NCBI GenBank assembly: GCA_965212005.1
Contig: OZ243038.1
Span: 1,857,440 to 1,921,439, forward strand
Reading direction: 5' to 3'
From: Candidatus Porifericomitaceae bacterium
Lineage (GTDB): Bacteria > Pseudomonadota > Gammaproteobacteria > Porifericomitales > Porifericomitaceae
Length of the DNA: 64,000 nucleotides
Below are positions 11,856-32,416 of the stretch, one piece after another. The notes under the pieces are model-generated. The model did not search any database. It was not told where the DNA came from and was given only the letters and a program-made list of their open reading frames with translations. Within the stretch, counting starts at the first letter, position 1. Every line of letters starts with the position of its first letter. Made by a program: the position numbers and the translations under genes.

Positions 11856-12962
11856 GTGGCAATGACTCCCTTCTCTCCATCGCACTGGGCTGCTTCCTGT
11901 ACACACCAGGAATGCTCATTACACCAGCTATCGCCATATATAGGAAAGCTAAAGAGCACGATCGCTCAAGACTTGATTCTGAAATACAGTAAACCAGGTG
12001 AGTTAGTAGTTGATGCGTTCTGTGGCAGCGGGACCGTACCATTAGAAGCTGCCCGCCTGGGGCGCAGAGTATTTGCCTCTGATACGAGTAGATATGCCGT
12101 CACACTAACTAAAGGGAAACTTAAGGCGCCAAACACAGCTAATGCTGCGCTTGCCTCTCTTGATAGTGTTTTGAAACACAGAAAGTCCCTGCCTACACCG
12201 GATATCAGGTATGTTCCTCGTTGGGTTAGAGCCTTCTTTCACCCCCACACACTCAAAGAAACGTTGCAATTTACAAGGTATCTCAAGCAGGAGCGTCAAT
12301 ATTTTCTGCTGGCATCTTTACTTGGCATTTTACATCATGAGCGTCCTGGGTTTCTATCGTTTCCAAGTAGTCACCTTGTTCCTTATCTTCGATCAAAAAA
12401 ATATCCCAGGGCAAGCTATCCTGCTCTTTATAACTATCGTCCACTGATTCCGCGCTTGACGGCAAAAATAAACCGAGCATTAAAACGACCGCCAAAAGAA
12501 GAATTGACCAAGTGGGTTGAAGGCATACGCCAGTCCTCTGTTGGATCTGTCAATTTGCCTAACTCTATTGACTGTGTTATTACAAGTCCACCCTATATGA
12601 ATGCGCTTGACTACGGGCGTGATAACCGTCTTAGGCTCTGGTTTTTGGGAGAATATGATATAGAATCATTAGATCGTCCCCTTGGGACTATTCAAGGTTT
12701 TACGCATGCAATAACGTCACTTGCCAAACAATTACAGCAAAAAGTGCGAGTGGGTGGCTATTGTATTTTTGTTATCGGCGAAAAATTGATAAGAAAGAAA
12801 GACAGGCTCCCTTCTGAAGAGTTAATGGAAATTTTTACAGTTCATGCGCCGGCAATTAGACTATGTAATATTATTAGTGACGTGATTCCTGATATTCGTC
12901 GCTCCCGCAGATATATTGCTGGAGTGAAGCAGGAAAATATTCTTGTATTTAGAAAATACTAA
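11856..12962 (+). CDS. DNA methyltransferase (N4-cytosine or N6-adenine, SPPY type)
   Basis: Motif I (ELVVDAFCGSGTVPLEAARLGRRVFASD) near the N-terminus and motif IV (ITSPPYMNALDYG) near the C-terminus. An SPPY motif is more typical of N4C methyltransferases. Start is GTG at 11856 or ATG at 11862. Confidence 0.75.
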   Translation: MAMTPFSPSHWAASCTHQECSLHQLSPYIGKLKSTIAQDLILKYSKPGELVVDAFCGSGTVPLEAARLGRRVFASDTSRYAVTLTKGKLKAPNTANAALASLDSVLKHRKSLPTPDIRYVPRWVRAFFHPHTLKETLQFTRYLKQERQYFLLASLLGILHHERPGFLSFPSSHLVPYLRSKKYPRASYPALYNYRPLIPRLTAKINRALKRPPKEELTKWVEGIRQSSVGSVNLPNSIDCVITSPPYMNALDYGRDNRLRLWFLGEYDIESLDRPLGTIQGFTHAITSLAKQLQQKVRVGGYCIFVIGEKLIRKKDRLPSEELMEIFTVHAPAIRLCNIISDVIPDIRRSRRYIAGVKQENILVFRKY

Positions 12963-15400: not shown

Positions 15401-16437
15401 ATGATACCTTATTGAAGGCAGATGAACAGTTACTTGTTATGGACTGGCCCAGTCTGCAAAAGATTGATGTACCTTCACTCAAGGCCAGTGACTTATATTT
15501 AGTATGTGTGGGCTTTGAAGATCGGGCTATAGAAACACTTCATCGAATCTGTGAGGCTGGAAGCAGGGAATTTTCGCTTGTTCTAGTGAACTATCGTCCA
15601 GAATATAAAGAGAATAGAAGAGAAGAGATTCTTGAAATCGCACGGCGGGCGGATTTGACAGTGCACGAGATTGTTTATGACCGAGAGAACCCGGCAGGTA
15701 TTGGAAAAGAGCTAGACTTCTCAGCAGATCGGATATTTGTGGATATTTCTGGCATGTCGCGTCTTCTCATAGTCCAAGTCTTGGTAGCACTAATCGGCAT
15801 TCAGGAACGGGCAATAAATATAATTTATGGTGAAGCAGCAGAATATTTCCCTTCTAAAGAACAATTCGAACGAGATCAGGCAAATGATGACAACAATTTG
15901 GAACATAGCTATCTATCTTCCGGGATTTTTGAAATAGCAATAGCGCCCGAATTAAGTTCTGTATCTATGTTAGGTGAAGCAATTAGATTGATAGCATTTC
16001 CATCACTTGATCATGTGCAACTCACCAATGTAATGCAAGAATTGCAACCTACTTATGCAGAATTTATTGATGGCATACCACCTGATGAAGGTAATGAATG
16101 GCGAACGGAAGCAATTCGAATAATTAATCATAGGACTATTAGTGCAGTTAAAAACCCTGTAACTCATCAAGCATCTACACTTGATTATAGAAAGACGTTA
16201 AAAATTTTGCTAGATATATACGAAGAGCGCAGCATGTTTGACCGACTTGTAATTGCGCCAACTGGCAGCAAAATGCAGGCTGTTGCCGTTGGTTTATTGA
16301 GATCTTTTCTTGACGATGTGCAAATTGTTTATCCAACGCCACATATTTTTACACACCCCAAGAGATATACATCTGGACTAAGTCAAATATATGAAGTCCA
16401 TATTCCATCTAAAGAAATACTTGCAAAATTAAAGTGA
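15397..16437 (+). CDS. Hypothetical protein with a Rossmann-like fold and possible CARF/SLOG-like sensor motifs. Translationally coupled to the kinase gene.
   Basis: ATGA overlap with the upstream stop. Beta-strand/Gly patterns (LYLVCVGFEDR, FVDISGMSRLLIV, LVIAPTGSKMQAV) are reminiscent of CARF D-I-T-G-G-x-K signatures. The assignment is speculative. Confidence 0.35.
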   Translation: MNDTLLKADEQLLVMDWPSLQKIDVPSLKASDLYLVCVGFEDRAIETLHRICEAGSREFSLVLVNYRPEYKENRREEILEIARRADLTVHEIVYDRENPAGIGKELDFSADRIFVDISGMSRLLIVQVLVALIGIQERAINIIYGEAAEYFPSKEQFERDQANDDNNLEHSYLSSGIFEIAIAPELSSVSMLGEAIRLIAFPSLDHVQLTNVMQELQPTYAEFIDGIPPDEGNEWRTEAIRIINHRTISAVKNPVTHQASTLDYRKTLKILLDIYEERSMFDRLVIAPTGSKMQAVAVGLLRSFLDDVQIVYPTPHIFTHPKRYTSGLSQIYEVHIPSKEILAKLK

Positions 16438-16502: not shown

Positions 16503-19049
16503 ATGCAACTCAAAACCTACCAACAAAAGGCCCTTGAACAATTAGACCGCTATCTTGAGGCGCTCAAAGAAGAGCGTCTGAAAAGTGAAAAAGCGGCGAC
16601 ATTTTTTGCGGAGCAGAACAGTGACGCTCCTGAAGACCTGAAAAATTATCCGCGCGCCGCATGGCAAACTCTGACGAAACAGGGCGTTCTCCCCAGCGTT
16701 GCAACGGGTCGAAATACCGAAATCCCCGACCCTATCCCCCGCACTGCAACCTCCGGCGACCCCATCCCCCACGTCTGCCTGAAAGTGCCCACCGGTGGCG
16801 GCAAGACGCTGCTGGGCGTCGCCGCCCTGGAACGTATCCAGCGGGACCCGGGCTTTGTGCTGTGGATTGTGCCGACCAGGGCGATTTACGAGCAGACTAT
16901 CATGGCTTTCCGAACCCGTGAACATCTCTACCGGCAGATGCTGGAGCAGATTTCCGGCGGCAAGGTGAAGCTGCTGCAGAAAACCGACCGCTTCACCCGG
17001 CAGGATACTGAAAACTACCTGTGCGTGATGATGCTGATGCTGCCGTCCGCCAACCGGCAGAGAGGAAAGGATTTCCTCAAGATATTCCGCGACAGCGGCA
17101 ATTACCCTTCTTTCTTTCCTGAACAGGACGACTTCGCCGCCAACCGGAAATTTGCCGAGAGGCATCCCGACCTTGAGCAAAACGAAACCGACGATTGGGC
17201 CAAACAAAGCCTTATCAATGTACTCAAACAGGTCCGCCTCACCGTGATTCTGGATGAGGCGCACAAGGCGTATGGACAAAATGACGCGAACAACAAGGAG
17301 TTTGTAAAGTCCGTCAACCGCCTGAATCCCCACTTTGTACTCGAACTTTCCGCCACGCCGAAAATCGGCATCAGTAATATCCTGGTTAACATATCGGGGA
17401 CCGAACTGTATGACGAGGAGATGATCAAACTGCCCATTGAGATTCACAGTTTCAGTAATTCCGACTGGCAGTATGCGCTTGCCCAAACCCAGGCGAAGTT
17501 AAGCCAACTGGAAAAAGAGGCGCGGCAACTAAAACAAAGAGAAAATCGCTATATTCGCCCTATCGCCCTGGTGCGGGTGCAGCGAACCGGCAAAGGGCAA
17601 AGAGAGCGGGGATACATTCATGCCGAGGATGCGCGGGAACATTTGATACAAAACCTTGCCGTGCCGGAAAATCAGATCCGGATTCAATCATCGGAACAAA
17701 AGGAACTCGAGGGTGAGGATTTGTTGAGTGAGGCCAGTCCCGTCCGCTGGATTATTACCAAAGACGCCCTGAAGGAGGGCTGGGACTGCTCGTTTGCCTA
17801 CGTGCTGGCGTTGCTGGACAACACCACGGCCACAACCGCCATGACGCAGATGGTCGGGCGGGTGATGCGGCAGCCCCATGCGCGCCGGATCGGGAACAGC
17901 AAGCCGCTGAACCAATGCTATATCTACTGCTATAACCAGGACGTGGGCAACGCGATTAAAAGTGTGAAAGCCGGCCTGGACAGAGGGGGACTGACGGGGC
18001 TTGGGGATGCCATTCTCGGCTACGGCGACGGTGAGGACGATGCGCCGAAGCCGATAACCGTGAAACGCCGGGGAAGATATAAGCGGTTGAACATCTTTCT
18101 TCCGCAGGTCTTGCACATACAGGGGAAAAAGTGGCGTCCCATTGATTACGACCGCGATATTCTGGGCGCGGTGGACTGGGGCAAGATTAACGGCGGTGGA
18201 GCGACCAATCTGGACGACAAAGACGTCATTCAGGAAATCAAGGCCACGGTTGATATTCAGGGGGAAAGTGATGTTTCCCAGAAAACGCTTGATACCGGGG
18301 AAAGTGTGACCCTGGATTATTTTGTCCGGCGGCTTACCGACATGCTTCCGAATCCGTGGCAGGCGGCGCGCGTGGCGGAGCGCTTTCTGAAACGGCACAA
18401 GGACAAAAAGCACGATGATGCGCAATTGCTGATCAACCGGATTTATCTTTCGGAAGTGCTAAGGCGCAGGGTGAAAACGGCCATTGACGGCAAGGCCGAG
18501 TCGGTGTTCCGGGGCAAGGTGCAGCAGAACCAAATCCGGTTTCATCTGGAAACCGATGAGCGGCTGGATTACGAACTGAACAGGTCGTTTGAGGTTTTTG
18601 TTTCCAGCAGAGAAAGGCGACTTCATGGTCCGCACAAGCCGATACAGCAGAGCCTTTTTTCTCCGGTTTACGAAAGCAGCTTTAACGATCTGGAAAAGGA
18701 CTTTGCGCTTTATCTGGACACGGATCAGGCAATCTATTGGTGGCACAGAATCGCTGCACGGCAGGCGTATTCCCTTCAGGGTTGGCGGCGGCATCGAGTG
18801 TATCCCGATTTTGTAGCCTGCCGGAAAAACGATGGAAAGCTGTTGATCCTGGAAACAAAAGGCATTCACCTGAAAGGCAACGAGGACACCGATTACAAGC
18901 AAAAATTACTGGAGATGCTGGAGAAAACGTATGAAACCGCCCTTGAAAGAGGCCAGTTCAAAGTACGGGAGCCGCCCGCCCAATTCAGGATGATGTTTGA
19001 GGATACATGGCCGGAGGACATGAACGAACTCCTCCAGGAAGGCAATTAG
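16503..19049 (+). CDS. res: Type III restriction endonuclease (Res subunit, SF2 helicase-like)
   Basis: Helicase motif I (LKVPTGGGKT), motif II DEAH-like (VILDEAHKAYG), and a QxxGRxxR-like motif (MTQMVGRVMRQP). The size (848 aa) and the position next to mod fit Res. Confidence 0.8.
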   Translation: MQLKTYQQKALEQLDRYLEALKEERLKSEKAATFFAEQNSDAPEDLKNYPRAAWQTLTKQGVLPSVATGRNTEIPDPIPRTATSGDPIPHVCLKVPTGGGKTLLGVAALERIQRDPGFVLWIVPTRAIYEQTIMAFRTREHLYRQMLEQISGGKVKLLQKTDRFTRQDTENYLCVMMLMLPSANRQRGKDFLKIFRDSGNYPSFFPEQDDFAANRKFAERHPDLEQNETDDWAKQSLINVLKQVRLTVILDEAHKAYGQNDANNKEFVKSVNRLNPHFVLELSATPKIGISNILVNISGTELYDEEMIKLPIEIHSFSNSDWQYALAQTQAKLSQLEKEARQLKQRENRYIRPIALVRVQRTGKGQRERGYIHAEDAREHLIQNLAVPENQIRIQSSEQKELEGEDLLSEASPVRWIITKDALKEGWDCSFAYVLALLDNTTATTAMTQMVGRVMRQPHARRIGNSKPLNQCYIYCYNQDVGNAIKSVKAGLDRGGLTGLGDAILGYGDGEDDAPKPITVKRRGRYKRLNIFLPQVLHIQGKKWRPIDYDRDILGAVDWGKINGGGATNLDDKDVIQEIKATVDIQGESDVSQKTLDTGESVTLDYFVRRLTDMLPNPWQAARVAERFLKRHKDKKHDDAQLLINRIYLSEVLRRRVKTAIDGKAESVFRGKVQQNQIRFHLETDERLDYELNRSFEVFVSSRERRLHGPHKPIQQSLFSPVYESSFNDLEKDFALYLDTDQAIYWWHRIAARQAYSLQGWRRHRVYPDFVACRKNDGKLLILETKGIHLKGNEDTDYKQKLLEMLEKTYETALERGQFKVREPPAQFRMMFEDTWPEDMNELLQEGN

Positions 19050-19189
19050 CGTATTTTTTAGGAGGCACGTATCAGGGATCATCTGCGCAGTCCAGCCTGC
19101 TGCTCCTGCCCCAGCGGGGCTTTTTGAGCATTGCCGGGGCGCACAGGTTGAGATTTCAAAAGCCATCGCCTATATTTCAGGGACCACCA

Positions 19190-21463
19190 ATGTCAACCCC
19201 TCCGAAAAAATCAACTAAGTCTATAAAAACCATTGGCGAATTCCTTGACTGGACAGGGAAACAGGAAGGCTCTTTGTTTCTCTATCGCGGAGTGTCTGCT
19301 CCCTACATGGAAATGGAAGCATCGGCATATCGCAGAATAAAGGAGAACCAGGAGGAAGATACGGTTCCTTCAAAAATATTTATCAATTATCACGAGCGAC
19401 TTCTGGATAGAGCCAGATTGGAGGGATTTGACGATCAACAGGGCAAGGATCCTTCCGACCTGGAATTACTTGCCAGGTTACAGCACTATGGCGCGGCAAC
19501 ATGCCTGATTGATTTTACCGCAGACCCTTTGATCGCATTGTGGTTTGCTTGCCAGGGAAGCGGGCAGACAAATGGAAAAGTCGTTGCCATGGCAACGGGT
19601 GATGTCCAAGACTTCGCCGCAGTGAAACACGAAGACTTGAAGAAGCCTGTCAAGGAATTCCTCAAGGAGGAAACACTGTGGAAATGGTCTCCTCGGCGCC
19701 AAAACAATCGCATTATTGCCCAGAAGTCAACGTTTATATTCGGAAAAAGTACGATCCAGGAGAGTTGCTACAAGACTGTCAAGATAGACAAAGAAAGCAA
19801 AGGAAACATTATTAATGAATTGTGGAATAGATTTGAAGTTACTGAGCAGTCCCTTTTTGGCGATTTTGTCGGTTTCTCTCTTGCCAATGCCCACGACAAA
19901 CCTTACAGCGACTATAACTCAGAAGACTATTTTATTTTTGGACTAACCTGCAGTCAGAGAAAAGAGTATCAGAAAGCGATAGATTATTACGACAAGGCGA
20001 TAGCGATTAACCCTGAATATACCGAGGCATATCACAATCGTGGTCATGCAAAGGATGCCTTGAGAAAGTATAAAGGAGCGATATCGGATTATGACAAGGC
20101 GATAGCCATTAATCCTAAATTGGCCGAGGCATATAACAATCGCGGCAATGCAAAGGATGCCATGGGCGAGCATAAAGGAGCGATAGCGGATTATGACAAA
20201 GCGATAGCCATTAATCCTAAATTGGCCGAGGCATATCACAATCGTGGCCATGCAAAGGATGCCATGGGCGAGCATAAAGGAGCGATAGCGTATTATGATA
20301 AGGCGATAGCCATTAACTCTCAATATGTCGAGGCATATACCAATCGCGGAGCTGCAAAGGATGCCTTGGGTGATCATCAAGGAGCGATAGCGGATTACGA
20401 CAAGGCGATAGCCATTAACCCTGAATATGCCGATGCATATAACAATCGCGGCAATGCAAAGAATGTCTTGGGCGAGCATAAAGGAGCGATGGTGGATTAT
20501 GGCAAGGCGATAGACATTAATCCTAAATATGCCGATGCATATTATAATCGCGGCAATGTAATGTATGCCTTGAGCGATCATCAAGGAGCGATAGCGGATT
20601 ATGACGAGGCGATAGCCATTAACTCTCAATATGCCGAGGCATATACCAATCGCGGCCATGCAAAGTATTCTCTGGGTGATCCTCAAGGAGCGATAGCGGA
20701 TTATGACAAGGCGATAGTCATTAATCCTAAATCGGCCGAGGCATATAACAATCGCGGAAATGCAAAGAATGTCTTGGGCGACCATGAAGGAGCGATAGCG
20801 GATTATGGCAATGCGATAGCCATTAATCCTCAATATGCCGAGGCATATAACAATCGCGGCAATACAAAGGGTGCCATGGGTGACCCTCAAGGGGCGATAG
20901 CGGATTATGACAAGGCGATAGTCATTAATCCTAAATTGGCCGAGGTATATAACAATCGCGGAAATGCAAAGAATGTCTTGGGCGACCATGAAGGAGCGAT
21001 AGTGGATTATGACAATGCGATAGCCATTAATCCTCAATATGCCGAGGTATATACCAATCGCGGCAATGCAAAGGGTGCCTTGGGCGACCCTCAAGGGGCG
21101 ATGGCGGATCATGATAAGGCGATAGCCATTAATTCTGAATTGGCCATGGCATATAACAATCGCGGCAATGTAAAGAATGTCTTGGGCGACCATGAAGGAG
21201 CGATGGCGGATTATGACAAGGCGATAGCCATTAATCCCCAATTGGCCATGGCATATAACAATCGCGGCAATGCAAAGAATGTCCTGGGCGACCGTGAAGG
21301 AGCGATAGCGGATTATGACAAGGCGATAGCCATTAATCCTGAATTTGCCATGGCATATAAAAATCGCGGCGATGCAAAGAAAGCCCTGGGCGACCGTGAA
21401 GGAGCGATGGCGGATTATGACCAGGCAATCGCCATTGACCCATCAATACGCCGAGGCATATAA
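19190..21463 (+). CDS. FRG-domain protein fused to a long TPR array (about 16 units)
   Basis: Start at the ATG 19190 (MSTPPKK...). The N-terminal 250 aa carry FLYRGVSAPY and LARLQHYGAATCLIDFTADPLIALWFAC, resembling the FRG-domain signature (FRGQ / QHYGLPTRLLDWT). The rest is 34-aa TPRs (AIADYDKAIAINPKLAEAYNNRGNAKDAMGEHKG). The C-terminus AIAIDPSIRRGI is shared with the downstream family. Confidence 0.7.
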   Translation: MSTPPKKSTKSIKTIGEFLDWTGKQEGSLFLYRGVSAPYMEMEASAYRRIKENQEEDTVPSKIFINYHERLLDRARLEGFDDQQGKDPSDLELLARLQHYGAATCLIDFTADPLIALWFACQGSGQTNGKVVAMATGDVQDFAAVKHEDLKKPVKEFLKEETLWKWSPRRQNNRIIAQKSTFIFGKSTIQESCYKTVKIDKESKGNIINELWNRFEVTEQSLFGDFVGFSLANAHDKPYSDYNSEDYFIFGLTCSQRKEYQKAIDYYDKAIAINPEYTEAYHNRGHAKDALRKYKGAISDYDKAIAINPKLAEAYNNRGNAKDAMGEHKGAIADYDKAIAINPKLAEAYHNRGHAKDAMGEHKGAIAYYDKAIAINSQYVEAYTNRGAAKDALGDHQGAIADYDKAIAINPEYADAYNNRGNAKNVLGEHKGAMVDYGKAIDINPKYADAYYNRGNVMYALSDHQGAIADYDEAIAINSQYAEAYTNRGHAKYSLGDPQGAIADYDKAIVINPKSAEAYNNRGNAKNVLGDHEGAIADYGNAIAINPQYAEAYNNRGNTKGAMGDPQGAIADYDKAIVINPKLAEVYNNRGNAKNVLGDHEGAIVDYDNAIAINPQYAEVYTNRGNAKGALGDPQGAMADHDKAIAINSELAMAYNNRGNVKNVLGDHEGAMADYDKAIAINPQLAMAYNNRGNAKNVLGDREGAIADYDKAIAINPEFAMAYKNRGDAKKALGDREGAMADYDQAIAIDPSIRRGI

Positions 21464-21940
21464 CAATCGCGGCGATGCAAAGAATGCCCTGGGCTACATA
21501 CAGACGGTATCCGCAGGGGAAACAGCAGGTGATGGCTGAAACGAGGGTTCCGTAGGGTAGGCCGGGACGGGTGCACTCCTATCGGACGGGCCCGGGGAGC
21601 CCCGGCGGAAAAGCGGGCAGGTGGTCATGGCCCTCAAAGAGCCAGTGCGACCTGTGCTGGCAGAACGAAACCACTGCTCTGTAACGAAGCTGAGCTGTCG
21701 ACAGCTGCGGGACTGCGCCAGGGCCCGTGCCGGCACCAGCTTACGCACTATACTTTGCTTGTTTTTGGGGGTATCTTTAAGGTTAAGCAGCGGGAAGAGG
21801 AGGCCGTCCGTAGTGGCAGCCATCTTGTTGACTGCATGGTAAAAAAAGCTTTGCGTAACGCCAGGAACGGGGTTTGCAGGCACGTCAGGCAAGAAGGCAA
21901 AGCAGGGGAGGAGCATACCCCTGCCCAAAGGAGTATCGCG
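21464..21940 (+). repeat. Conserved intergenic leader, copy 1 of 5
   Basis: About 470 bp, near-identical to 24305-24778, 27572-28045, 29327-29865 and 31198-31678. It ends with AAAGGAG-N7-GTG. Confidence 0.9.
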
Positions 21941-24304
21941 GTGTCAAAATCGACGAAAAAGCCAGCAGGGGCGAGACCCGCCGTCCGCCCGGCCGGAGGC
22001 TGGCATCCGTTGACGGGGCGCGCCCGTCGCGCCGTGTGCTGCCTGCTGTCCTGCCTGGTGTCGGGCCTGCCCGCGTTGATGCCCATCCCCTCGCTGGCTA
22101 CCGACGTCTACAAGTATCGGGACGACCATCAAGGAGCGATATCGGATTACGACAAAGCGATAGCCATTAATCCTCAAGATGCGAAGGCATATTATAATCG
22201 CGGCAATGCAAAGGATGACCTGGGCGAGCGCCAAGGAGCGATATCGGATTACGATCAGGCGATAGCCATTCACCCTCAAGATGCGAAGGCATATAGCAAT
22301 CGCGGCAATGCAAAGTATGACTTGGGCGACCATCCAGGAGCGATAGCGGATTACGACAAGGCGATAGCCATCAACCCTCAATTTTCCGAGGCATATACCA
22401 CTCGCGGAATTACAAAGAGTGACCTGGGCGACCGTCAAGGAGCGATGGCGGATTATGACAAGGCGATAGCAGAGTACGACAAGGCGATAGCCATTCACCC
22501 TCAATATGCCGAGGCATATAACTATCGCGGAGCTACAAAGCATGTCCTGGGCGACCGTCAAGGAGCGATAACGGATTACGACCAGGCGATAGCCATTCAC
22601 CCTCAATTTGCCGAGGCATATGCCACTCGCGGAGTTACAAAGACTTTCCTGGGCGACCATAAAGGAGCGATAGCGGATTACGACAAGGCGATAGCCATTA
22701 ATCCTCAAGATGTCGTGGTATATAACTTTCGCGGACACACAAAGACTTTCCTGGGCGACGATCAAGGAGCGATAACGGATTACGACCAGGCGATAGCCAT
22801 TAATCCTCAATATGCCGAGGCATATAACTATCGCGGAGCTACAAAGCATGTCCTGGGCGACCCTCAAGGAGCGATAACGGATTACGACCAGGCGATAGCT
22901 ATTAATCCTCAATATGCCGAGGCATATAACAATCGCGGAGCTACAAAGGATGCCTTGGGCGACCATCCAGGAGCGATAGCGGATTATGACAAGGCGATAG
23001 CCATTAACCCTCAATATGCCGAAGCATATAACAATCGCGGAGCTACAAAGGATGCCTTGGGCGACCGTCCAGGAGCGATGGCGGATTATGACCAGGCGAT
23101 AGCCATTAACCCTCAAGATGCTGAGGCATATAACAATCGCGGAGCTACAAAGGGTGACCTGGGCGATCCTCAAGGAGCGATATCGGTTTACGACAAGGCG
23201 ATAGCCATGGCATATTATATTCGCGGATTGATAAAGAATTTCCTGGGTGACGACCCTCAAGGAGCGATAACGGACTACGACAAGGCGATAGCCATTAACC
23301 CTCAATATGCGAAGGCATATAAAAAGCGCGGCGATGCAAAGTATTTTTGGGAAGACGACACTAAAGGAGCGATAACAGATTACGACAAGGCGATAGCCAT
23401 TAACCCTCAATATGTCGAGGCATATAAAAAGCGCAGCCTTGCAAAGCGTTTCCTGGGCGACCGTGAAGGAGCGATATCGGATTACGGCAAGGTGATAGCC
23501 ATTAACCCTCAAGATGAGAATGCATATATTATGCGCGGCTATGTAAAGCGTGACCTGGGCGACCGTGAAGGAGCGATATCGGATTACGACCAGGTGATAG
23601 CCATTAGACCTCAATATGACATTGCATATCGCTGGCGTGGCCTTGTAAAGAATGACCTGGGCGACCGTGAAGGAGCGATATCGGATTACGACCAGGCGAT
23701 AGCCATTAACCCTCAGTATGCGAATGCATATTTTAATCGCGGCTATGCAAAGAATGCCTTGGGCGACCGTGAAGGAGGGATATCAGATTACGACCAGGCG
23801 ATAGCCATTAACCCTAAATTTAACGAGGCATATCGCTTTCGTGGCCTTGTAAAGAATGACCTGGGCGACCGTGAAGGAGCGATAGCGGATTACGACCAGG
23901 CGATAGCCATTAACCCTCGATATGCGAAGGCATATAAAAATCGCGGCAATGCCAAGGATGCTCTGGGCGACCGTGAAGGAGCGATGGCGGATTATGACCA
24001 GGTGATAGCCATTTACGACAAGGAGATCGCCATTGACCCTCAATATGCCGAAGCATATTATGGTCGCGGAGTTGCAAAGGATGCCTTGGGCGATCGTGAA
24101 GGAGCGATGGCGGATTATGACCAGGCGATAGCCATTTACGACAAGGAGATCGCCATCAACCCTCAAGATGCCAAAGCATATTATAATCGCGGCGATGCAA
24201 AGTCTGCCCTGGGCGACCGTGAAGGAGCGATGGCGGATTACGACCAGGCAATCGCCATTGACCCCTCAATCGCCATTAACCCCTTAATACGCCGAGGCAT
24301 ATAA
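21941..24304 (+). CDS. Secreted TPR-array protein (family member 1, about 21 TPR units)
   Basis: GTG start 7 nt after AAGGAG. Signal peptide MSKSTKKPAG...TGRARRAVCCLLSCLVSGLPALMPIPSLA/TD, then 34-aa TPR units with the consensus AI(A/S)DYDQAIAINPQYAEAYNNRGNAKDALGDREG. Confidence 0.85.
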   Translation: MSKSTKKPAGARPAVRPAGGWHPLTGRARRAVCCLLSCLVSGLPALMPIPSLATDVYKYRDDHQGAISDYDKAIAINPQDAKAYYNRGNAKDDLGERQGAISDYDQAIAIHPQDAKAYSNRGNAKYDLGDHPGAIADYDKAIAINPQFSEAYTTRGITKSDLGDRQGAMADYDKAIAEYDKAIAIHPQYAEAYNYRGATKHVLGDRQGAITDYDQAIAIHPQFAEAYATRGVTKTFLGDHKGAIADYDKAIAINPQDVVVYNFRGHTKTFLGDDQGAITDYDQAIAINPQYAEAYNYRGATKHVLGDPQGAITDYDQAIAINPQYAEAYNNRGATKDALGDHPGAIADYDKAIAINPQYAEAYNNRGATKDALGDRPGAMADYDQAIAINPQDAEAYNNRGATKGDLGDPQGAISVYDKAIAMAYYIRGLIKNFLGDDPQGAITDYDKAIAINPQYAKAYKKRGDAKYFWEDDTKGAITDYDKAIAINPQYVEAYKKRSLAKRFLGDREGAISDYGKVIAINPQDENAYIMRGYVKRDLGDREGAISDYDQVIAIRPQYDIAYRWRGLVKNDLGDREGAISDYDQAIAINPQYANAYFNRGYAKNALGDREGGISDYDQAIAINPKFNEAYRFRGLVKNDLGDREGAIADYDQAIAINPRYAKAYKNRGNAKDALGDREGAMADYDQVIAIYDKEIAIDPQYAEAYYGRGVAKDALGDREGAMADYDQAIAIYDKEIAINPQDAKAYYNRGDAKSALGDREGAMADYDQAIAIDPSIAINPLIRRGI

Positions 24305-24778
24305 CCATCGCGACTATGCAGCCCCCTGGTCTACGATAAGACAGTATCCGCAGGGGAAACAGCAGGTGATGCCTGAAACGAGGGTTCCGTAGGGTAGGCC
24401 GGGACGGGCACACTCCTATCGGACGGCCCCGGGGAGGCCCGGCGGAAAAGCGGGCAGATGCCAGGGTCCTCAAAGAGCCAGTGCAATCTGTGTCGGCAGA
24501 ACGAAACCACTGCTCTGCAACGAAGCTGAGCCGCCGACAGCTGCGGGACTGGCACCAGGGCCCGTGCAGGCGCTGCTTACGCACTATACCTTGCTTGTTT
24601 TTTGGGGTATCTTTCAAGGTCAACGCAGCGGGAAGAGGAGGCCGTCCGTAGTGGTCGCCATCTTGTTGACTGCATGGTAAAAAAGCTTTGCGTAACGCCA
24701 GGAACGGGGTTTGCAGGCACGTCAGGCAAGAAGGACAAGCAGGGGAGGGAGCATACCCCTGCCCAAAGGAGTGCCGCA
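24305..24778 (+). repeat. Conserved intergenic leader, copy 2 of 5
   Basis: Near-identical to the other four copies. Confidence 0.9.
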
Positions 24779-27571
24779 GTGGCAAAATTGACGAACAAGC
24801 CAGCAGAGGCGGTATCCGCCGTCAGCCTGGCCCGGCGCCGGGATCCGTTGACGGGGCGCGCCCGTCGCGCCGTGTGCTGCCTGCTGTGCTGCCTGGTGTC
24901 GGGCCTGCCCGCGTTGATACCCATCCCCTCGCTGGCTACCGACGTCTACAAGTATCGGAACGACCTTCAAGGAGCGCTATCGGATTACGACAAAGCGATA
25001 GCCATTAATCCTCAAGATGCCAAGGCATATTACAAACGCGGCAATGCAAAGGCTGCCCTGGGCGACCGTGAAGGAGCGATACCGGATTACGACCAGGCGA
25101 TAGCCATTAACCCTCAATATGCCGGGGCATATTACAATCGCGGACTTACAAAGGATTCTCTGGGCGACCGTGAAGGAGCGATAGCGGATTACGACCAGGC
25201 GATAGCCATTAACCCTCAATATGCCAAGGCATATAACAATCGCGGCTATGTAAAGTCTGCCCTGGGCGACCGTGAAGGAGCGATACCGGATTATGACCAG
25301 GCGATAGCCATTAACCCTCAATATGCCGGGGCATATTACAATCGCGGCAATGCAAAGGCTGCCCTGGGCGACCGTGAAGGAGCGATAGCGGATTACGATC
25401 AGGCGATAGCCATTAACCCTCAATATGCCGAGGCATATTACAATCGCGGACTTACAAAGGATTCTCTGGGCGACCGGGAAGGAGCGATACCGGATTACGA
25501 CCAGGCGATAGCCATTAACCCTCAAGATGCCAAGGCATATAACAATCGCGGCTATGTAAAGGATGCCTTGGGCGACCGGGAAGGAGCGATAGCGGATTAC
25601 GACCAGGCGATAGCCATTAACCCTCAATATGCCGGGGCATATTACAATCGCGGCAATGCAAAGTCTGCCCTGGGCGACCGGGAAGGAGCGATACCGGATT
25701 ACGATCAGGCGATAGCCATTAACCCTCAATATGCCGAGGCATATTACAATCGCGGACTTACAAAGGATTCTCTGGGCGACCGGGAAGGAGCGATAACGGA
25801 TTACGACCAGGCGATAGCCATTAACCCTCAAGATGCCAAGGCATATAACAATCGCGGCTATGTAAAGGATGCCTTGGGCGACCGGGAAGGAGCGATAGCG
25901 GATTACGACCAGGCGATAGCCATTAACCCTCAATATGCCGGGGCATATTACAATCGCGGCAATGCAAAGGATGCTCTGGGCGACCGGGAAGGAGCGATAA
26001 CGGATTACGATCAGGCGATAGCCATTAACCCTCAAGATGCCAAGGCATATAACAATCGCGGCTATGCAAAGAAAGCCTTGGGCGACCGGGAAGGAGCGAT
26101 AACGGATTACGATCAGGCGATAGCCATTAACCCTCAAGATGCCAAGGCATATAACAATCGCGGTAATGCAAAGAAAGCCTTGGGCGACCGGGAAGGAGCG
26201 ATAACGGATTACGACCAGGCGATAGCCATTAACCCTCAATATGCCAAGGCATATAACAATCGCGGCAATGCAAAGAAAGCTCTGGGCGACCGTGAAGGAG
26301 CGATGGCGGATTATGACAAGGCGATAGCCATTAACCCTCAAGGAGCGATATCGGTTTACGACAAGGCGATAGCCATGGCATATTATATTCGCGGATTTAT
26401 AAAGGATATCCTGGGCGGCCGTGAAGGAGCGATAGCGGATTACGACAAGGCGATAGCCATTAACCCTCAATATACGAAGGCATATAAAAATCGCGGCGAT
26501 GCAAAGTTTTTCCTGGGTGACGACCCTCAAGGAGCGATAACGGATTACGATAAGGCGATAGCCATTAACCCTCAAGATGCCGAGGCATATAAAAAGCGCG
26601 GCCAAGCAAAGCGTTTCCTGGGCGACCGTGAAGGAGCGATAGCGGATTACGATAAGGCGATAGCCATTAACCCTCAAGATGCCGAGGCATATAACAATCG
26701 CAGCTCCGTGAAGCGTTCCCTGGGCGACCGTGAAGGAGCGATATCGGATTACGGCAAGGTGATAGCCATTAACCCTCAAGATGAGCATGCATATATTATG
26801 CGCGGCTATGTAAAGCGTGACCTGGGCGACCGTGAAGGAGCGATATCGGATTACGACCAGGTGATAGCCATTAGACCTCAATATGACATTGCATATCGCT
26901 GGCGTGGCCTTGTAAAGAATGACCTGGGCGACCGTGAAGGAGCGATATCGGATTACGACCAGGCGATAGCCATTAACCCTCAGTATGCGAATGCATATTT
27001 TAATCGCGGCTATGCAAAGAATGCCTTGGGCGACCGTGAAGGAGGGATATCAGATTACGACCAGGCGATAGCCATTAACCCTAAATTTAACGAGGCATAT
27101 CGCTTTCGTGGCCTTGTAAAGAATGACCTGGGCGACCGTGAAGGAGCGATAGCGGATTACGACCAGGCGATAGCCATTAACCCTCGATATGCGAAGGCAT
27201 ATAAAAATCGCGGCAATGCCAAGGATGCTCTGGGCGACCGTGAAGGAGCGATGGCGGATTATGACCAGGTGATAGCCATTTACGACAAGGAGGTCGCCAT
27301 TGACCCTCAATATGCCGAAGCATATTATGGTCGCGGAGTTGCAAAGGATGCCTTGGGCGATCGTGAAGGAGCGATGGCGGATTATGACCAGGCGATAGCC
27401 ATTTACGACAAGGAGATCGCCATCAACCCTCAAGATGCCAAAGCATATTATAATCGCGGCGATGCCAAGGATGCCCTGGGCGACCGTGAAGGAGCGATGG
27501 CGGATTACGACAAGGCAATCGCCATTGACCCCTCAATTGCCATTAACCCCTTAATACGCCGAGGCATATAA
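24779..27571 (+). CDS. Secreted TPR-array protein (family member 2, about 25 TPR units)
   Basis: Same Shine-Dalgarno/GTG start and signal peptide (MAKLTNKPAEAVSAVSLARRRDPLTGRARRAVCCLLCCLVSGLPALIPIPSLATD). It contains 306-bp higher-order repeats. The C-terminal ~300 aa are nearly identical to member 1. Confidence 0.85.
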   Translation: MAKLTNKPAEAVSAVSLARRRDPLTGRARRAVCCLLCCLVSGLPALIPIPSLATDVYKYRNDLQGALSDYDKAIAINPQDAKAYYKRGNAKAALGDREGAIPDYDQAIAINPQYAGAYYNRGLTKDSLGDREGAIADYDQAIAINPQYAKAYNNRGYVKSALGDREGAIPDYDQAIAINPQYAGAYYNRGNAKAALGDREGAIADYDQAIAINPQYAEAYYNRGLTKDSLGDREGAIPDYDQAIAINPQDAKAYNNRGYVKDALGDREGAIADYDQAIAINPQYAGAYYNRGNAKSALGDREGAIPDYDQAIAINPQYAEAYYNRGLTKDSLGDREGAITDYDQAIAINPQDAKAYNNRGYVKDALGDREGAIADYDQAIAINPQYAGAYYNRGNAKDALGDREGAITDYDQAIAINPQDAKAYNNRGYAKKALGDREGAITDYDQAIAINPQDAKAYNNRGNAKKALGDREGAITDYDQAIAINPQYAKAYNNRGNAKKALGDREGAMADYDKAIAINPQGAISVYDKAIAMAYYIRGFIKDILGGREGAIADYDKAIAINPQYTKAYKNRGDAKFFLGDDPQGAITDYDKAIAINPQDAEAYKKRGQAKRFLGDREGAIADYDKAIAINPQDAEAYNNRSSVKRSLGDREGAISDYGKVIAINPQDEHAYIMRGYVKRDLGDREGAISDYDQVIAIRPQYDIAYRWRGLVKNDLGDREGAISDYDQAIAINPQYANAYFNRGYAKNALGDREGGISDYDQAIAINPKFNEAYRFRGLVKNDLGDREGAIADYDQAIAINPRYAKAYKNRGNAKDALGDREGAMADYDQVIAIYDKEVAIDPQYAEAYYGRGVAKDALGDREGAMADYDQAIAIYDKEIAINPQDAKAYYNRGDAKDALGDREGAMADYDKAIAIDPSIAINPLIRRGI
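25090..26010 (+). repeat. Higher-order tandem repeat of 306 bp (3 TPR units: LTKDSL / YVKDAL / NAK(S/A)AL), about 3 copies, inside TPR member 2
   Basis: Near-perfect nucleotide identity between successive 306-bp blocks (for example 25130-25435 versus 25436-25741 versus 25742-26047). Confidence 0.8.
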
Positions 27572-28045
27572 CCATCGCGGTTATGCAGCCCCCTGATCTA
27601 CGATAAGACAGTATCCACAGGGGAAACGGCAGGGGATGCCTGAAACGAGGGTTCCGTAGGGTAGGCTGAGCCGGGCGCACTCCTATCGGACGGCCTCGGG
27701 GAGGCCCGGCGGAAAAGCGGGCAGATGCCGGGGTCCTCAAAGAGCCAGTGCAATCTGTGTCGGCAGAACGAAACCACTGCTCTGCAACGAAGCTGAGCCG
27801 CCGACAGCTGCGGGACTGGCACCAGGGCCCGTGCAGGCGCTGCTTACGCACTATACCTTGCTTGTTTTTTGGGGTATCTTTCAAGGTCAACGCAGCGGGA
27901 AGAGGAGGCCGCCCGTAGTGGCCGCCATCTTGTTGACTGCATGGTAAAAAAGCTTTGCGTAATGCCAGGAACGGGGTTTGCAGGCAGGTCAGGCAAGAAG
28001 GCAAAGCAGGGAAGGGAGCATACCCCTGCCCAAAGGAGTGTCGCG
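27572..28045 (+). repeat. Conserved intergenic leader, copy 3 of 5
   Basis: Near-identical to the other four copies. Confidence 0.9.
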
Positions 28046-29326
28046 GTGGCAAAATCGACGAACAAGCCAGCAGGGGCGGTATCCGCCGTCAGCCCGGCTC
28101 GGTGCCGGGATCCGTTGACGGGGCGCGCCCGTCGCGCCGTGTGCTGTCTGCTGTCCTGCCTGGTGTCGGGCCTGTCCGCGTTGATGCCCATCCCCTCGCT
28201 GGCTACCGACGTCTACAAGTATCGGGACGACCCTCAAGGAGCGCTATCGGATTACGACCAGGCGATAGCCATCAATCCTCAAGATGCCGAGGCATATTAC
28301 AATCGCGGAGTTAAAAAGCATGCCCAGGGCGACCCTCAAGGAGCGCTATCGGATTACGACCAGGCGATAGCCATCAACCCTCAAGATGCCGAGGCATATT
28401 ACAAACGCGGCAATGCAAAGAAAGCCCTGGGCGACCGTGAAGGAGCGATAACGGATTACGGCCAGGCGATAGCCATTAACCCTCAGGATTTCAAGGCATA
28501 TAACAATCGCGGCAATGCAAAGGATGATCTGGGCGACCGTGAAGGAGCGATAACGGATTATGACCAGGCGATAGCCATCAACCCTCAAGGTGTCGTGGCA
28601 TATTTCAATCGCGGCAATGCAAAGCATGACCTGGGCGACCATCAGGGAGCGATATCGGATTACGACCAGGCGATAGCCATTAACCCTCAATTGGCCGATG
28701 CATATTATGGTCGCGGAGATACAAAGCATGTCCTGGACGATTATCAAGGAGCGATAGCGGATTATGATAAGGCGATAGCTATCAACCCTCAATATGCCGA
28801 GGCATATTGGAGGCGCGGCAATTCAAAGTATATCCTAGGCGATCATCAAGGAGCGCTATCGGATTACGACCAGGCGATAGCCATTAACCCTCAAGATGCG
28901 AAGGCATATTATAATCGCGGCAATGCAAAGGATGCTCTGGGCGACCGTCAAGGAGCGATAGCGGATTACGACCAGGCGATAGCCATTAACCCTCAAGATG
29001 CGAAGGCATATAACAATCGCGGCAATGCAAAGAATGCCCTAGGCGACCCTCAAGGAGCGATGGCAGATTACGACAAGGCGATAGCCATTAATTTTCGAGA
29101 TGCCTATGCATATCACAATCGCGGACGTACAAAGCATGACCTGGGCGACCCTCAAGGAGCGATGGCAGATTACGACAAGGCGATAGCCATTAACCCTCAA
29201 TATGCCGATGCATATTACAATCGCGGAGCTACAAAGTATGCCCTGGGCGACCGTGAAGGAGCGATGGCGGATTATGACAAGGCAATCGCCATTGACCCAT
29301 CAATACGCCGAGATATATCACAATAG
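28046..29326 (+). CDS. Secreted TPR-array protein (family member 3, about 11 TPR units)
   Basis: Same Shine-Dalgarno/GTG start and signal peptide, followed by the TPR array. Confidence 0.85.
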   Translation: MAKSTNKPAGAVSAVSPARCRDPLTGRARRAVCCLLSCLVSGLSALMPIPSLATDVYKYRDDPQGALSDYDQAIAINPQDAEAYYNRGVKKHAQGDPQGALSDYDQAIAINPQDAEAYYKRGNAKKALGDREGAITDYGQAIAINPQDFKAYNNRGNAKDDLGDREGAITDYDQAIAINPQGVVAYFNRGNAKHDLGDHQGAISDYDQAIAINPQLADAYYGRGDTKHVLDDYQGAIADYDKAIAINPQYAEAYWRRGNSKYILGDHQGALSDYDQAIAINPQDAKAYYNRGNAKDALGDRQGAIADYDQAIAINPQDAKAYNNRGNAKNALGDPQGAMADYDKAIAINFRDAYAYHNRGRTKHDLGDPQGAMADYDKAIAINPQYADAYYNRGATKYALGDREGAMADYDKAIAIDPSIRRDISQ

Positions 29327-29865: not shown

Positions 29866-31197
29866 GTGGCAAAATTGACGAACAAGCCAGCAGGGGCGAT
29901 ATCCGCCGTCAGCCTGGCCCGGCGCCGGCATCCGTTGACGGGGCGCGCCCGTTGCGCCGTGTGTTGCCTGCTGTCCTGCCTGGTGTCGGGCCTACCCGCG
30001 TTGACGCCCATCCCCTCGCTGGCCACCGACGTCTACAAGTATCGAGGCGACCATCAAGGATCGATAGCGGATTACGACCAGGCGATAGCCATTAACCCTC
30101 AAGATGCCGAGGCATATAACAATCGCGGAGTTAAAAAGCATGCCCAGGGCGACCTTCAGGGAGCGATAGTGGATTATGACAAGGCGATAGCCATTAACCC
30201 TCAATATGCCGAAGCATATTACAATCGCGGAGCTACAAAGGATGCCCTGGGCGACCGTCAAGGAGCGATAGTGGATTATGACAAGGCGATAGCCATTAAC
30301 CCTCAATATGCCGAAGCATATTACAATCGCGGAGCTACAAAGGTTGCCCTGCTAGACCCTCAAGGAGCGCTATCGGATTACGACCAGGCGATAGCCATTA
30401 ACCCTCAATTTAGCCCGGTATATATCTACCGCAGCGATGCAAAGGGTGCCTTGGGCGACCATGAAGGAGTGATATCAGATTACGACCAGATGATAGCCAT
30501 TAACCCTCAAGATGCTGGGGCATATGTCTCACGCGGCAGGGCAAAGTATGACCAGGGCGACCGTGAAGGAGCGCTATCGGATTACGACCAGGCGATAGCC
30601 ATTGACCCTCAATATGACATTGCATATAGCTGGCGTGGCGATGCAAAGTCTGCCCTGGGCGACCATGAAGGAGCGCTATCGGATTACGACCAGGCGATAG
30701 CCATTAGCCCTCAATATGCGAAGGCATCTAAGGCAAAGGCATATAAAAGTCGCGGCGATGCAAAGTCTGCCCTGGGCGACCATGAAGGAGCGCTATCGGA
30801 TTACGACCAGGCGATAGCCATTAGCCCTCAATATGCGAAGGCATCTAAAGCGAAGGCATATAAAAATCGCGGCGATGCAAAGAATGCCCTGAGCGACCAT
30901 GAAGGAGCGCTATCGGATTACGACGAGGCGATAGCCATTAACCCTCAATATGCGAAGGCATATATCAATCGCGGCGATGCAAAGGATGACTTGGGCGACC
31001 GTGAAGGAGCAATGGCGGATTATGACCAAGCGAGAGCCATTTACGACAAGGAGATAGCCATTGACCCTCAAGATGCCGAAGCATATAAAAATCGCGGCGA
31101 TGCCAAGGATGCCCTGGGCGACCGTGAAGGAGCGATGGCGGATTACGACCAGGCAATCGCCATTGACCCCTCAATACGCCAGGGCATATCACAATAG
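29866..31197 (+). CDS. Secreted TPR-array protein (family member 4, about 12 TPR units)
   Basis: Same Shine-Dalgarno/GTG start and signal peptide, followed by the TPR array. Confidence 0.85.
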   Translation: MAKLTNKPAGAISAVSLARRRHPLTGRARCAVCCLLSCLVSGLPALTPIPSLATDVYKYRGDHQGSIADYDQAIAINPQDAEAYNNRGVKKHAQGDLQGAIVDYDKAIAINPQYAEAYYNRGATKDALGDRQGAIVDYDKAIAINPQYAEAYYNRGATKVALLDPQGALSDYDQAIAINPQFSPVYIYRSDAKGALGDHEGVISDYDQMIAINPQDAGAYVSRGRAKYDQGDREGALSDYDQAIAIDPQYDIAYSWRGDAKSALGDHEGALSDYDQAIAISPQYAKASKAKAYKSRGDAKSALGDHEGALSDYDQAIAISPQYAKASKAKAYKNRGDAKNALSDHEGALSDYDEAIAINPQYAKAYINRGDAKDDLGDREGAMADYDQARAIYDKEIAIDPQDAEAYKNRGDAKDALGDREGAMADYDQAIAIDPSIRQGISQ

Positions 31198-31678: not shown

Positions 31679-32416
31679 GTGGCAAAATCGACGAACAAGC
31701 CAGCAGGGGCGGTATCCGCCGTCAGCCCGGCCCGGTGCCGGGACCCGTTGACGGGGCGCGCCCGTCGCGCCGTGTGCTGCCTGCTGTCTTGCCTGCTGTC
31801 GGGCCTGCCCGCGTTGATGCCCATCCCCTCGCTGGCTACCGACGTCTACAAGTATCGGGACGACCGGGGACGCACGCTCTTCACCGACCGTAAGAGTAGT
31901 GGGCGCTCCCTGCAATACATAGGCAAATGGAGTTGGAAGTCGTGGATGCAGCGGCGTTTCAATCCCTACTTGTGCCTGGCGAACCGCGATCGTTTCAACG
32001 CGCTGATCGAAGATGCGGCATACCGCCATCATCTGTCCGTGGCGCTCGTGCACTCGGTGATCAGCGCTGAATCCTGTTATGACCCCAAGGCCATTTCCAG
32101 GGCGGGCGCCGTCGGCTTGATGCAGCTGATGCCTGGGACCGCGCGGCGCTATGGAGTGGATGATCGGTACGATCCTGCGCAGAACTTGAACGGGGGCACC
32201 CGCTACTTGCGCGATCTTTTGAATATGTTCCGGGGCGATCTGAAGCTGGCTTTGGCGGCGTACAACGCCGGGGAGAACGTGGTCATCCGCTACGGGTTCG
32301 CGATCCCTCCTTACCCGGAGACGCAGCAGTACGTGGGGAAGGTGCTGCAAAACTACAATCAAAATCTATCCCGCTTTCCAGAGCGGCGCGCTCAGCCTGC
32401 TTCTTCCCGCAGTTAG
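31679..32416 (+). CDS. Lytic transglycosylase (SLT domain) carrying the same signal peptide as the TPR family
   Basis: GTG start after AAGGAG. Signal peptide MAKSTNKPAG...RRAVCCLLSCLLSGLPALMPIPSLATDVYKYRDD. SLT catalytic motifs (ESCYDPKAIS with the catalytic Glu, GLMQLMPGTA, AAYNAGENVV). Confidence 0.85.
   Translation: MAKSTNKPAGAVSAVSPARCRDPLTGRARRAVCCLLSCLLSGLPALMPIPSLATDVYKYRDDRGRTLFTDRKSSGRSLQYIGKWSWKSWMQRRFNPYLCLANRDRFNALIEDAAYRHHLSVALVHSVISAESCYDPKAISRAGAVGLMQLMPGTARRYGVDDRYDPAQNLNGGTRYLRDLLNMFRGDLKLALAAYNAGENVVIRYGFAIPPYPETQQYVGKVLQNYNQNLSRFPERRAQPASSRS

Follow-up and report, generated by a model that had tools for sequence, protein, structure and literature searches.

In the PrrC-EcoprrI system, an abortive-infection gene encoding an anticodon nuclease with an ABC ATPase is embedded in a restriction-modification (R-M) locus. 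The principle of genes embedded in defence loci is set out in bioRxiv 10.1101/2024.01.29.577857, and the source paper of the PADLOC PDC models defines PDCs by their location inside BREX, DISARM or type I R-M loci. One such set, PDC-S15, corresponds to the FRG family (Pfam PF08867), which is already known together with its predicted role in defence. Frg has been placed in the ADP-ribosyltransferase (ART) superfamily as a possible NADase effector, and RES and Frg have been grouped among the ART clades on which prokaryotic immune systems draw (PMC9503650); a survey of Legionella ARTs also lists FRG as ART-like (bioRxiv 10.1101/2024.07.30.605764). A different group of proteins, the "eukaryotic-like" tetratricopeptide repeat (TPR) proteins, is enriched in sponge symbionts (PMC10947273, PMC11706023). 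Here, we describe a gene that touches both groups. FRG-TPR lies in a 64,000-nucleotide (nt) stretch of contig OZ243038.1 from a Candidatus Porifericomitaceae bacterium, which we call the window, and encodes an N-terminal FRG module fused to a TPR array. We favor, with a probability of roughly 0.55, the reading that FRG-TPR is a horizontally acquired, cytoplasmic FRG sensor-effector and that its TPR array was reused to build four exported TPR genes, T1 to T4, immediately downstream.

By every sequence criterion tested, FRG-TPR belongs to the FRG/PDC-S15 family. As in described members, the family profile spans the entire module, which contains the YRG and QHxGxxTxLxDxT motifs, and a single gene that is predicted to encode an anti-phage effector lies beside or within R-M loci. 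FRG-TPR differs by its additional 15-unit array, PDC-S15 models aligning to the FRG part only, and by the distribution of its subfamily, which centers on Poribacteria, Caldilineaceae, Dehalococcoidia and other lineages represented by metagenome-assembled genomes (MAGs). The arrangement recalls PrrC-EcoprrI in that an R-M operon contains or adjoins the gene for an effector, suggesting a back-up for when restriction fails. Unlike PrrC, the FRG-TPR effector is predicted to be ART-like, and its partner R-M types vary. Avs/STAND NTPases and the TPR-S scaffold likewise join a variable TPR solenoid to an effector in a setting of defence, but FRG-TPR lacks an NTPase switch domain and showed no match to TPR-S (PF20308) among its Pfam families at E ≤ 0.01; as judged from these domain searches, it is neither TPR-S nor STAND type. 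T1-T4 resemble the exported TPR proteins of sponge symbionts, since they carry signal peptides and consist of TPRs only, and the genome also encodes an ankyrin-repeat protein. They differ in that they appear to trace to a bacterial defence-island gene and a bacterial signal peptide rather than to a eukaryote, and FRG-TPR itself is cytoplasmic. The gene and its two parts are located as follows.

19190..21463, + strand: FRG-TPR gene, intact, ATG start, 757 amino acids (aa), matched by Pfam and PADLOC
19190..19930 (about aa 1-247), + strand: FRG module with the YRG motif, the QHYGAATCLIDFT motif and a conserved C-terminal subdomain; ART-like fold predicted
19931..21463, + strand: TPR array of 15 units of 34 aa, with the capping end …AIAIDPSIRRGI

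An earlier note on this DNA, made from the letters and their open reading frames (ORFs), had recognized FRG hallmarks in the N-terminal part of the protein, and both motifs are indeed present. LYRGVS occupies aa 31-36, with Y32-R33-G34 as the (F/Y)RG motif, and QHYGAATCLIDFT occupies aa 98-110 (Q98-H99-Y-G-A-A-T-C-L-I-D-F-T110) as the QHxG…T.L.D.T motif. The Pfam FRG profile matched aa 30-126 over profile positions 3-91 of 94 (E 3e-15), with a score of 57.3 bits against a gathering cut-off of 25 bits. Thirteen PDC-S15 models matched as well: PDLC04938, which aligned aa 9-230 to positions 42-263 of 276 (E 1.9e-27), and twelve others. Because this match spans aa 9-230, the whole N-terminal module of ~245 aa, beyond the Pfam core, belongs to the FRG/PDC-S15 family. 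We examined residue conservation in an alignment of 121 sequences and found the positions of both motifs to be invariant or nearly so. Twelve residues of this kind, R33, G34, R49, Q98, H99, G101, T104, D108, F109, Q178, S180 and K204, are all kept in FRG-TPR, and R33, H99, D108, Q178 and S180 are candidates for NAD+ binding or catalysis. The N-terminus, MSTPPKKSTKSIKTIGEF, is hydrophilic and lies inside the folded domain of the AlphaFold2 model. No signal peptide was found, as the earlier note had maintained; we also looked at this end of the protein for a leader derived from the downstream lytic transglycosylase gene or for a hydrophobic N-terminus and found neither, the FRG module standing there instead. 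An upstream start at 19007 was rejected, as it overlaps res and would add 61 aa without counterpart in homologues, whose starts fall within about 10 aa of the Met at 19190.

The AlphaFold2 model, for which the same alignment served as input, reached a pLDDT of 87.8 and a pTM of 0.84. In a Foldseek search against the PDB, about 47 of the 50 matches listed were ART-fold proteins, with a best E of 0.022, TM scores of 0.28-0.53 and none at the significance line of E ≤ 1e-3. The match with the best E was the RES toxin 6gw6 (E 0.022, probability 0.77, TM 0.28/0.44), and others included the Rhs toxin TreTu (8s2n, probability 0.87), ParT (6d0h), exotoxin A, the cholix and cholera toxins, PARPs and Arr. 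This trend agrees with the published assignment of Frg to the ART superfamily, and the model suggests that the FRG module likely adopts the ART fold. RES-Xre and ParT-ParS are thus the best structural neighbors of the model, although these matches are not significant. Sequence similarity to them is absent, and no antitoxin gene adjoins FRG-TPR, in contrast to both systems; regulation would instead fall to the fused TPR array. A sequence-based search of the PDB for a solved FRG structure returned only TPR proteins with a sequence profile and a best E of 0.34 with the FRG module alone, and nothing significant was found when a viral structure library was searched with the model.

The TPR array of FRG-TPR is perfectly periodic. 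Pfam TPR_1 matched in 15 stretches (E 2.6e-122) with a spacing of exactly 34 aa. The units share a mean DNA identity of 84%, and several pairs are nearly identical (96% for u2/u3, 97% for u8/u10 and 93% for u9/u11), indicating recent internal duplication within the array. Variation between units peaks at TPR positions 5 and 12 and in the loops at 17-18 and 33-34, and is moderate at 2, 9 and 13; between the two helices it is concentrated in helix A, and helix B is almost invariant. Positions 2, 5, 9, 12 and 13 form the concave, ligand-contacting face of a TPR.

The same type of array is found in the four genes that follow. The earlier note had proposed that FRG-TPR shares its array type and its C-terminal ending with a family of secreted TPR proteins, and this held: the FRG-TPR array is 78-84% identical in DNA to T1-T4 over 1-1.9 kb, and its ending ALGDREGAMADYDQAIAIDPSIRRGI (…AIAIDPSI) is common to all four. 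The T genes, the gene to their right and the intervening spacers are arranged in one direction.

21941..24304, + strand: T1, 787 aa, SLT leader plus TPR array; GTG start 7 nt after AAAGGAG
24779..27571, + strand: T2, 930 aa, SLT leader plus TPR array
28046..29326, + strand: T3, 426 aa, SLT leader plus TPR array
29866..31197, + strand: T4, 443 aa, SLT leader plus TPR array
31679..32416, + strand: lytic transglycosylase (SLT) gene encoding a signal peptide, DUF4124 and SLT (Pfam SLT E 2e-28); right-end parent and donor of the leader
21464..21940, 24305-24778, 27572-28045, 29327-29865 and 31198-31678, + strand: spacers of ~475 bp, one after each TPR gene, 88-96% identical in pairs

The SLT protein starts at GTG 31679, 7 nt after AAAGGAG, and begins VAKSTNKPAGAVSAVSPARCRDPLTGRARRAVCCLLSCLLSGLPALMPIPSLATDVYKYRDD, followed by RGRTLFTDRKS…. 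Each T gene consists of the ribosome-binding site, GTG and leader of this gene (91-96% DNA identity) up to …YKYR(D/N/G)D, followed by TPR sequence of the form (H/L/P)QGA(I/L)SDYDKAIAINP…. The copied segment takes in the spacer 5' of SLT, its signal peptide and the eight residues that open the mature protein (…SLATDVYKYRDD), with identity running through …ATDVYKYRDD and divergence thereafter. At the junction, SLT sequence …CGGGACGAC/CGGGG meets TPR sequence …GGTGAT/CATCAAGG (slashes mark the join), with microhomology of only 1-4 nt. The junction at aa 62 cuts through DUF4124, which covers aa 46-72 of the SLT protein, and the T1 leader has no DUF4124 match. At the other side of the join, the T1-T4 arrays begin mid-repeat, at about position 10 of the 34 positions of the TPR profile. 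We then turned to SLT orthologues elsewhere, which are mostly DUF4124 plus SLT proteins of 200-220 aa that are named as gammaproteobacterial, and found a contiguous (I/V)YKYxDxxGRxxxTD right after the signal peptide. Since the motif is unbroken in these proteins, the leader originated with the SLT gene, and it is the T genes that are chimeric; had …VYKYxDxxGR been interrupted there, a model with FRG-TPR as founder would have failed, but it was intact. Altogether, it is very probable that T1-T4 are chimeric genes. The junction sequence was also sought in metagenome contigs, where it had no match.

The spacers extend the same pattern. Similarity runs for ~600 bp past the stop codons of FRG-TPR, T1, T2, T3 and T4 at 88-96% identity, the 3' spacer of FRG-TPR is 88-90% identical to the other copies, and the copy behind T4 leads directly into the SLT gene. 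The spacers have a host-like GC content of ~60% and are better conserved than the TPR arrays that they separate. Codon third-position GC is 0.49-0.51 in the T arrays and 0.46 in the FRG-TPR array, compared with 0.74 in SLT and 0.78 in tyrS; in composition, the T genes, spacers and SLT gene form a mosaic. The copies differ by 4-12%, and the tandem array is therefore not an assembly artefact. Single-nucleotide indels distinguish the spacer copies, from which it follows that the stretch ahead of the GTG is non-coding. TTG starts had been listed for T1-T4, and we rejected them because of these indels and because AAAGGAG lies 7 nt before each GTG. An in-frame TTG (…LTGRARRAV…) in the T genes would give a canonical 30-aa signal peptide, compared with the 53-aa one from the GTG, and the RRAV in the T leaders could be read as a twin-arginine motif. 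The spacer after T3 contains an internal duplication of ~65 bp. An Rfam search with the conserved spacers returned no family.

FRG-TPR and the SLT gene thus form the left and right ends of a tandem-duplication series with the SLT-leader/TPR fusions between them, which supports the suggestion of the earlier note that FRG-TPR is the cytoplasmic founder of the family. The direction of descent is a matter of parsimony. At the level of single units, FRG-TPR and T1-T4 are 70-80% identical on average, with best unit matches of 80-91% and the highest values at the 3' end; given this moderate identity, descent of the T arrays from FRG-TPR is parsimonious rather than proven. We consider the FRG-TPR array the probable donor of the T arrays, as opposed to a resident TPR gene since lost or a later back-conversion. 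The reverse chimera, in which a short stand-alone FRG gene at the island's end was fused to a resident TPR gene, or had its tail gene-converted, so that its array came from the T family, is unlikely. FRG-only relatives of 250-275 aa do exist, the C-terminal 26 aa of FRG-TPR are T-type (…GDREGAMADYDQAIAIDPSIRRGI) and not the family ending …G(D/N)xxGAxxD(F/W)xxAxEIDPxxxPP, and identity to the T units climbs toward the 3' end, reaching 89-91% in u13-u14. However, FRG-TPR keeps the linker of its family between module and array, so at least its first TPRs are ancestral, and FRG-TPR genes of other genomes carry long arrays of their own (in proteins of 515-1098 aa). The T genes, moreover, are demonstrably secondary, with their SLT leader and mid-repeat start, and the perfect periodicity of the FRG-TPR array contrasts with the irregularity of the T arrays. 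That irregularity concerns T1, T2 and T4, T3 being as perfectly periodic as FRG-TPR. Unit spacings in the three irregular arrays include 15, 28, 29, 35, 39, 41 and 75 aa, with motifs such as AIAIYDKEIAI. Long ORFs of 432-634 aa run antisense to the TPR arrays (19943-21241, 21944-23614 and 24977-26881, all on the - strand); they are most likely artefacts of repeat composition and not genes.

To place FRG-TPR among its relatives, we searched with its first 255 aa and obtained 1050 proteins, the best of which was 58% identical. Among the best 120, about 80 continue from FRG into TPRs and about 39 consist of FRG only. The linker from FRG to TPR, …GF(A/S)LxNAHDKPYxxYxAEDYFxLG…, is conserved in the family and present in the window protein. 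Together with the TPRs of most top relatives, this linker indicates that FRG-TPR is an old architecture and not a local accident. Array size in relatives ranges from 2 to more than 20 units, and the proteins encoded in genome loci measure 430-1098 aa; two related genomes carry, at the same locus, versions of 446 aa and 406 aa. Relatives in species-representative genomes come almost entirely from MAGs of Poribacteria, Caldilineaceae, Dehalococcoidia, Latescibacterota, Acidimicrobiia, Gammaproteobacteria and others. This set of lineages is typical of the sponge microbiome. In the Poribacterial FRG-TPR proteins (L008:9995-11953, L010:9995-12052, L012:10840-12339 and L020:9995-13291, where L numbers are our labels for related loci), we observed an extra conserved tail of ~45 aa, …F(H/R)NxYxS(I/V)xDFEQKxGxxLPEDIAxxLT, which is absent from the window protein.

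The neighbors of FRG genes were clustered and scanned with Pfam and PADLOC, and R-M neighbors were tallied by our own count in 41 loci. R-M genes adjoin the FRG gene in about 21 of these, and among the 117 nearest ORFs, the commonest Pfam families were N6_Mtase, N6_N4_Mtase, Eco57I, ResIII, Helicase_C and Methylase_S. The R-M neighbors fall into the following kinds.

Type I (HsdR plus HsdM-S): L001, L002, L004, L027, L040
Type IIG (Eco57I-like, some with an HKD-SNF2 helicase): L006, L008, L009, L010, L020, L032
Type ISP: L012, L007
N6_N4 methylase related to the one at 7927-9582 of the window: L019, L022, L025, L029, L031, L034, L039 (a Type III mod follows in L029)
DUF1156 methylase plus DUF499: L018

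At L001, L004, L010, L012 and L020, the FRG gene is directly preceded by the R-M gene in the same orientation, at distances between -8 nt (an overlap) and +66 nt. The loci of the homologues P0021 and P0022 are islands of toxin-antitoxin or Abi type, with Fic, HNH, NYN and AAA_21/DUF3226 genes, and L006-L008 each hold three or four FRG paralogues in tandem. The FRG-TPR architecture is conserved and associated with R-M genes, and this association is consistent with how PDC-S15 was found. Several of the tandem FRG(-TPR) paralogues (L006:6600-13523, L007:7776-13683 and L008:8888-14937) are split by apparent frameshifts into separate FRG and TPR ORFs. We also considered whether secreted TPR paralogues lie beside FRG-TPR in other genomes and discarded the idea, as most TPR-only ORFs there look like frameshifted FRG-TPR tails.

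These neighborhoods also bear on the possibility that FRG-TPR is a toxin-like stabilizer or guard, held inactive by a cognate methylase or R-M complex and freed upon its loss or by a phage anti-restriction protein, on the pattern of PrrC-EcoprrI, and not an autonomous sensor. In the seven loci with an adjacent N6_N4 methylase, no restriction gene was identified among the neighbors scanned; the window methylase at 7927-9582 belongs to the same family, and placement at the edge of an operon recurs. The R-M partners are of mutually unrelated types, however, which speaks against a lock between specific proteins. A methylase is missing from many loci, and the related methylase of the window is 9.6 kb away. 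We therefore rate a methylase-locked guard as improbable.

Within the window, FRG-TPR lies in an island of 40-55% GC that extends from ~7.8 to 31.4 kb, the rest of the window having ~62% GC. The remaining features of this region are listed below; the first five were assigned with Pfam and PADLOC.

7927-9582, + strand: N6_N4 DNA methylase
9623-11719, + strand: TPR protein with a DUF2971-like C-terminal module
11856-12962, + strand: second methylase
12965-15400, + strand: Ser/Thr kinase fused to an ORC/CDC6-like AAA domain
15397-16437, + strand: CARF-like protein
16503..19049, + strand: res, Type III-like restriction subunit (PADLOC REase_III, full-length, E 1.4e-208; Pfam ResIII)
19100..19176, + strand: features of the gap between res and FRG-TPR, a terminator-like hairpin and a promoter-like site (consensus matches only)
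21755-31197, + strand: stretch of the four TPR genes T1-T4 (GTG of T1 at 21941)
3' of the SLT gene, + strand: the housekeeping genes htpG, tyrS and ftsH

FRG-TPR stands directly downstream of res, as had been stated before, with 140 nt between the end of res and the FRG-TPR ATG. Matches to consensus in this gap are the terminator-like hairpin GCCCCAGCGGGGC (19108-19120), followed by a TTTTT run to 19125, and a promoter-like TTGAGA-17-TATATT at 19148-19176 (10/12) ahead of FRG-TPR.

The gene at 9623-11719 (+ strand), between the two DNA methylase genes, is a second TPR fusion of the island. Its product has about nine N-terminal TPRs, with a consensus unlike that of FRG-TPR, and a C-terminal module of ~365 aa that matches DUF2971 weakly (E 0.014) and carries invariant HYTS, YMNDPEEG, LWRTYG and IRFLFK motifs. 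The family counts 213 relatives, mostly with the same layout of TPRs and module, some of them named as Nitrospira MAGs. Homology between FRG and this DUF2971-like module was rejected (hhalign probability 0.3%). Between the second methylase and res, the kinase-AAA and CARF-like genes (12965-16437) show weak matches to the PADLOC models for the MADS genes mad2, mad6 and mad8, and the CARF-like protein is matched by PADLOC CARF6 models only; the pair may be a separate embedded defence module. Just outside the island, 4069-5376 (+ strand) encodes an ankyrin-repeat protein (Ank_2 E 7e-33), another "eukaryotic-like" repeat protein.

The claim that FRG-TPR is part of a defence island is supported by this context, by the PADLOC PDC-S15 matches and by the literature. 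The earlier note had offered it as an alternative to the founder role; each of the two readings holds, but they are compatible and need not have been opposed. Several points weigh against the combined reading that we favor. The match of the model to the ART fold is weak by the measures given above. The arrays of FRG-TPR and T1-T4 are identical only to the moderate degree already described, and the terminator-like and promoter-like sites part FRG-TPR from res. Tblastn searches with Res, the second methylase, the kinase-AAA protein and the CARF-like protein found no match in the 10 kb to either side of the FRG genes at 48 loci, so the operon formed by these genes in the window is not a conserved FRG partner. 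Neither of the two outcomes that the earlier note named as refuting was seen, as the FRG match is well above its cut-off and homologues often adjoin R-M or defence genes, with R-M genes present in about half of the related loci. The other half of these loci have no R-M neighbor, and some neighbors are housekeeping genes (Mfd, cobalamin synthesis). The count of 21 in 41 is a raw tally without a matched background, and we read it as enrichment because DNA methylase genes are generally rare. PDC-S15, for its part, is presented in the PDC source paper as one of 145 candidates that are still predictions, and we found no experiment on any FRG protein in the literature searched.

Some of these points would also fit a protein with no role in defence, either a "eukaryotic-like" TPR protein of the symbiont or an enzyme, NAD-linked or regulatory, with a housekeeping task, whose proximity to R-M genes reflects shared integration hot spots. 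Such a reading could draw on the loci without R-M neighbors, on the housekeeping genes beside some relatives and on the lack of FRG experiments in the literature, as well as on the concentration of relatives in lineages rich in TPR and ankyrin proteins and on the ankyrin protein of the window itself. Against it, FRG-TPR has no signal peptide and hence is cytoplasmic, and the R-M gene often lies just upstream on the same strand with an overlap or a very short gap. At least four unrelated R-M types are involved, and tandem paralogues with fast repeat turnover are typical of conflict genes. The protein also matches the independent PADLOC PDC-S15 set, which was derived from genes embedded in defence systems. 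A role outside defence therefore seems to us doubtful.

On the reading that we prefer, a sensor-effector whose array was reused, FRG-TPR would have arrived with a horizontally acquired R-M island. The FRG module of ~245 aa would be the effector, an ART-like enzyme that hydrolyses NAD+ or ADP-ribosylates a target. The TPR solenoid would be a binding, sensing or autoinhibitory part that binds a cue and controls the effector; its units turn over fast, with variation at the usual ligand-contact positions. FRG-TPR would then act beside R-M as a second-line layer of abortive-infection type, with phage or the failure of restriction as the cue. Enzymatic activity, trigger and defence phenotype are features that we infer. 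The locus would at first have held FRG-TPR, a spacer and the SLT gene in that order. One leader::TPR gene would then have arisen when a segment that began within the array, took in the stop codon and the spacer and ended at codon 62 of SLT was duplicated in tandem, which placed the ribosome-binding site, start codon and signal peptide of SLT on a TPR unit part-way through. Unequal crossing-over, together with internal gain and loss of units, could then have produced the four exported genes T1-T4. A bolder version has the immune FRG-TPR array as the direct source of exported "eukaryotic-like" TPR proteins and FRG-TPR proteins as cross-phylum, NAD+-consuming guards of R-M systems that are triggered through their TPRs, for example by anti-restriction proteins. 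We advance this version only as a long shot.

In the literature searched, we did not find the TPR-fused FRG subfamily, its spread over uncultured phyla or its placement by four R-M types, nor the birth of exported TPR genes from FRG-TPR. To the FRG proteins, a large class predicted to act as anti-phage effectors, this subfamily adds a fused, fast-evolving TPR array. Its members turn up repeatedly at the margins of R-M systems of at least four kinds, in uncultured bacteria of several phyla that are mostly associated with sponges, and this gives concrete constructs and mutants to test. The locus is also a readable record of gene birth, in which two parents and four chimeric offspring stand side by side with the junction at nucleotide resolution. 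It would thereby illustrate one route by which symbionts may acquire exported repeat proteins, from bacterial genes rather than from the host.

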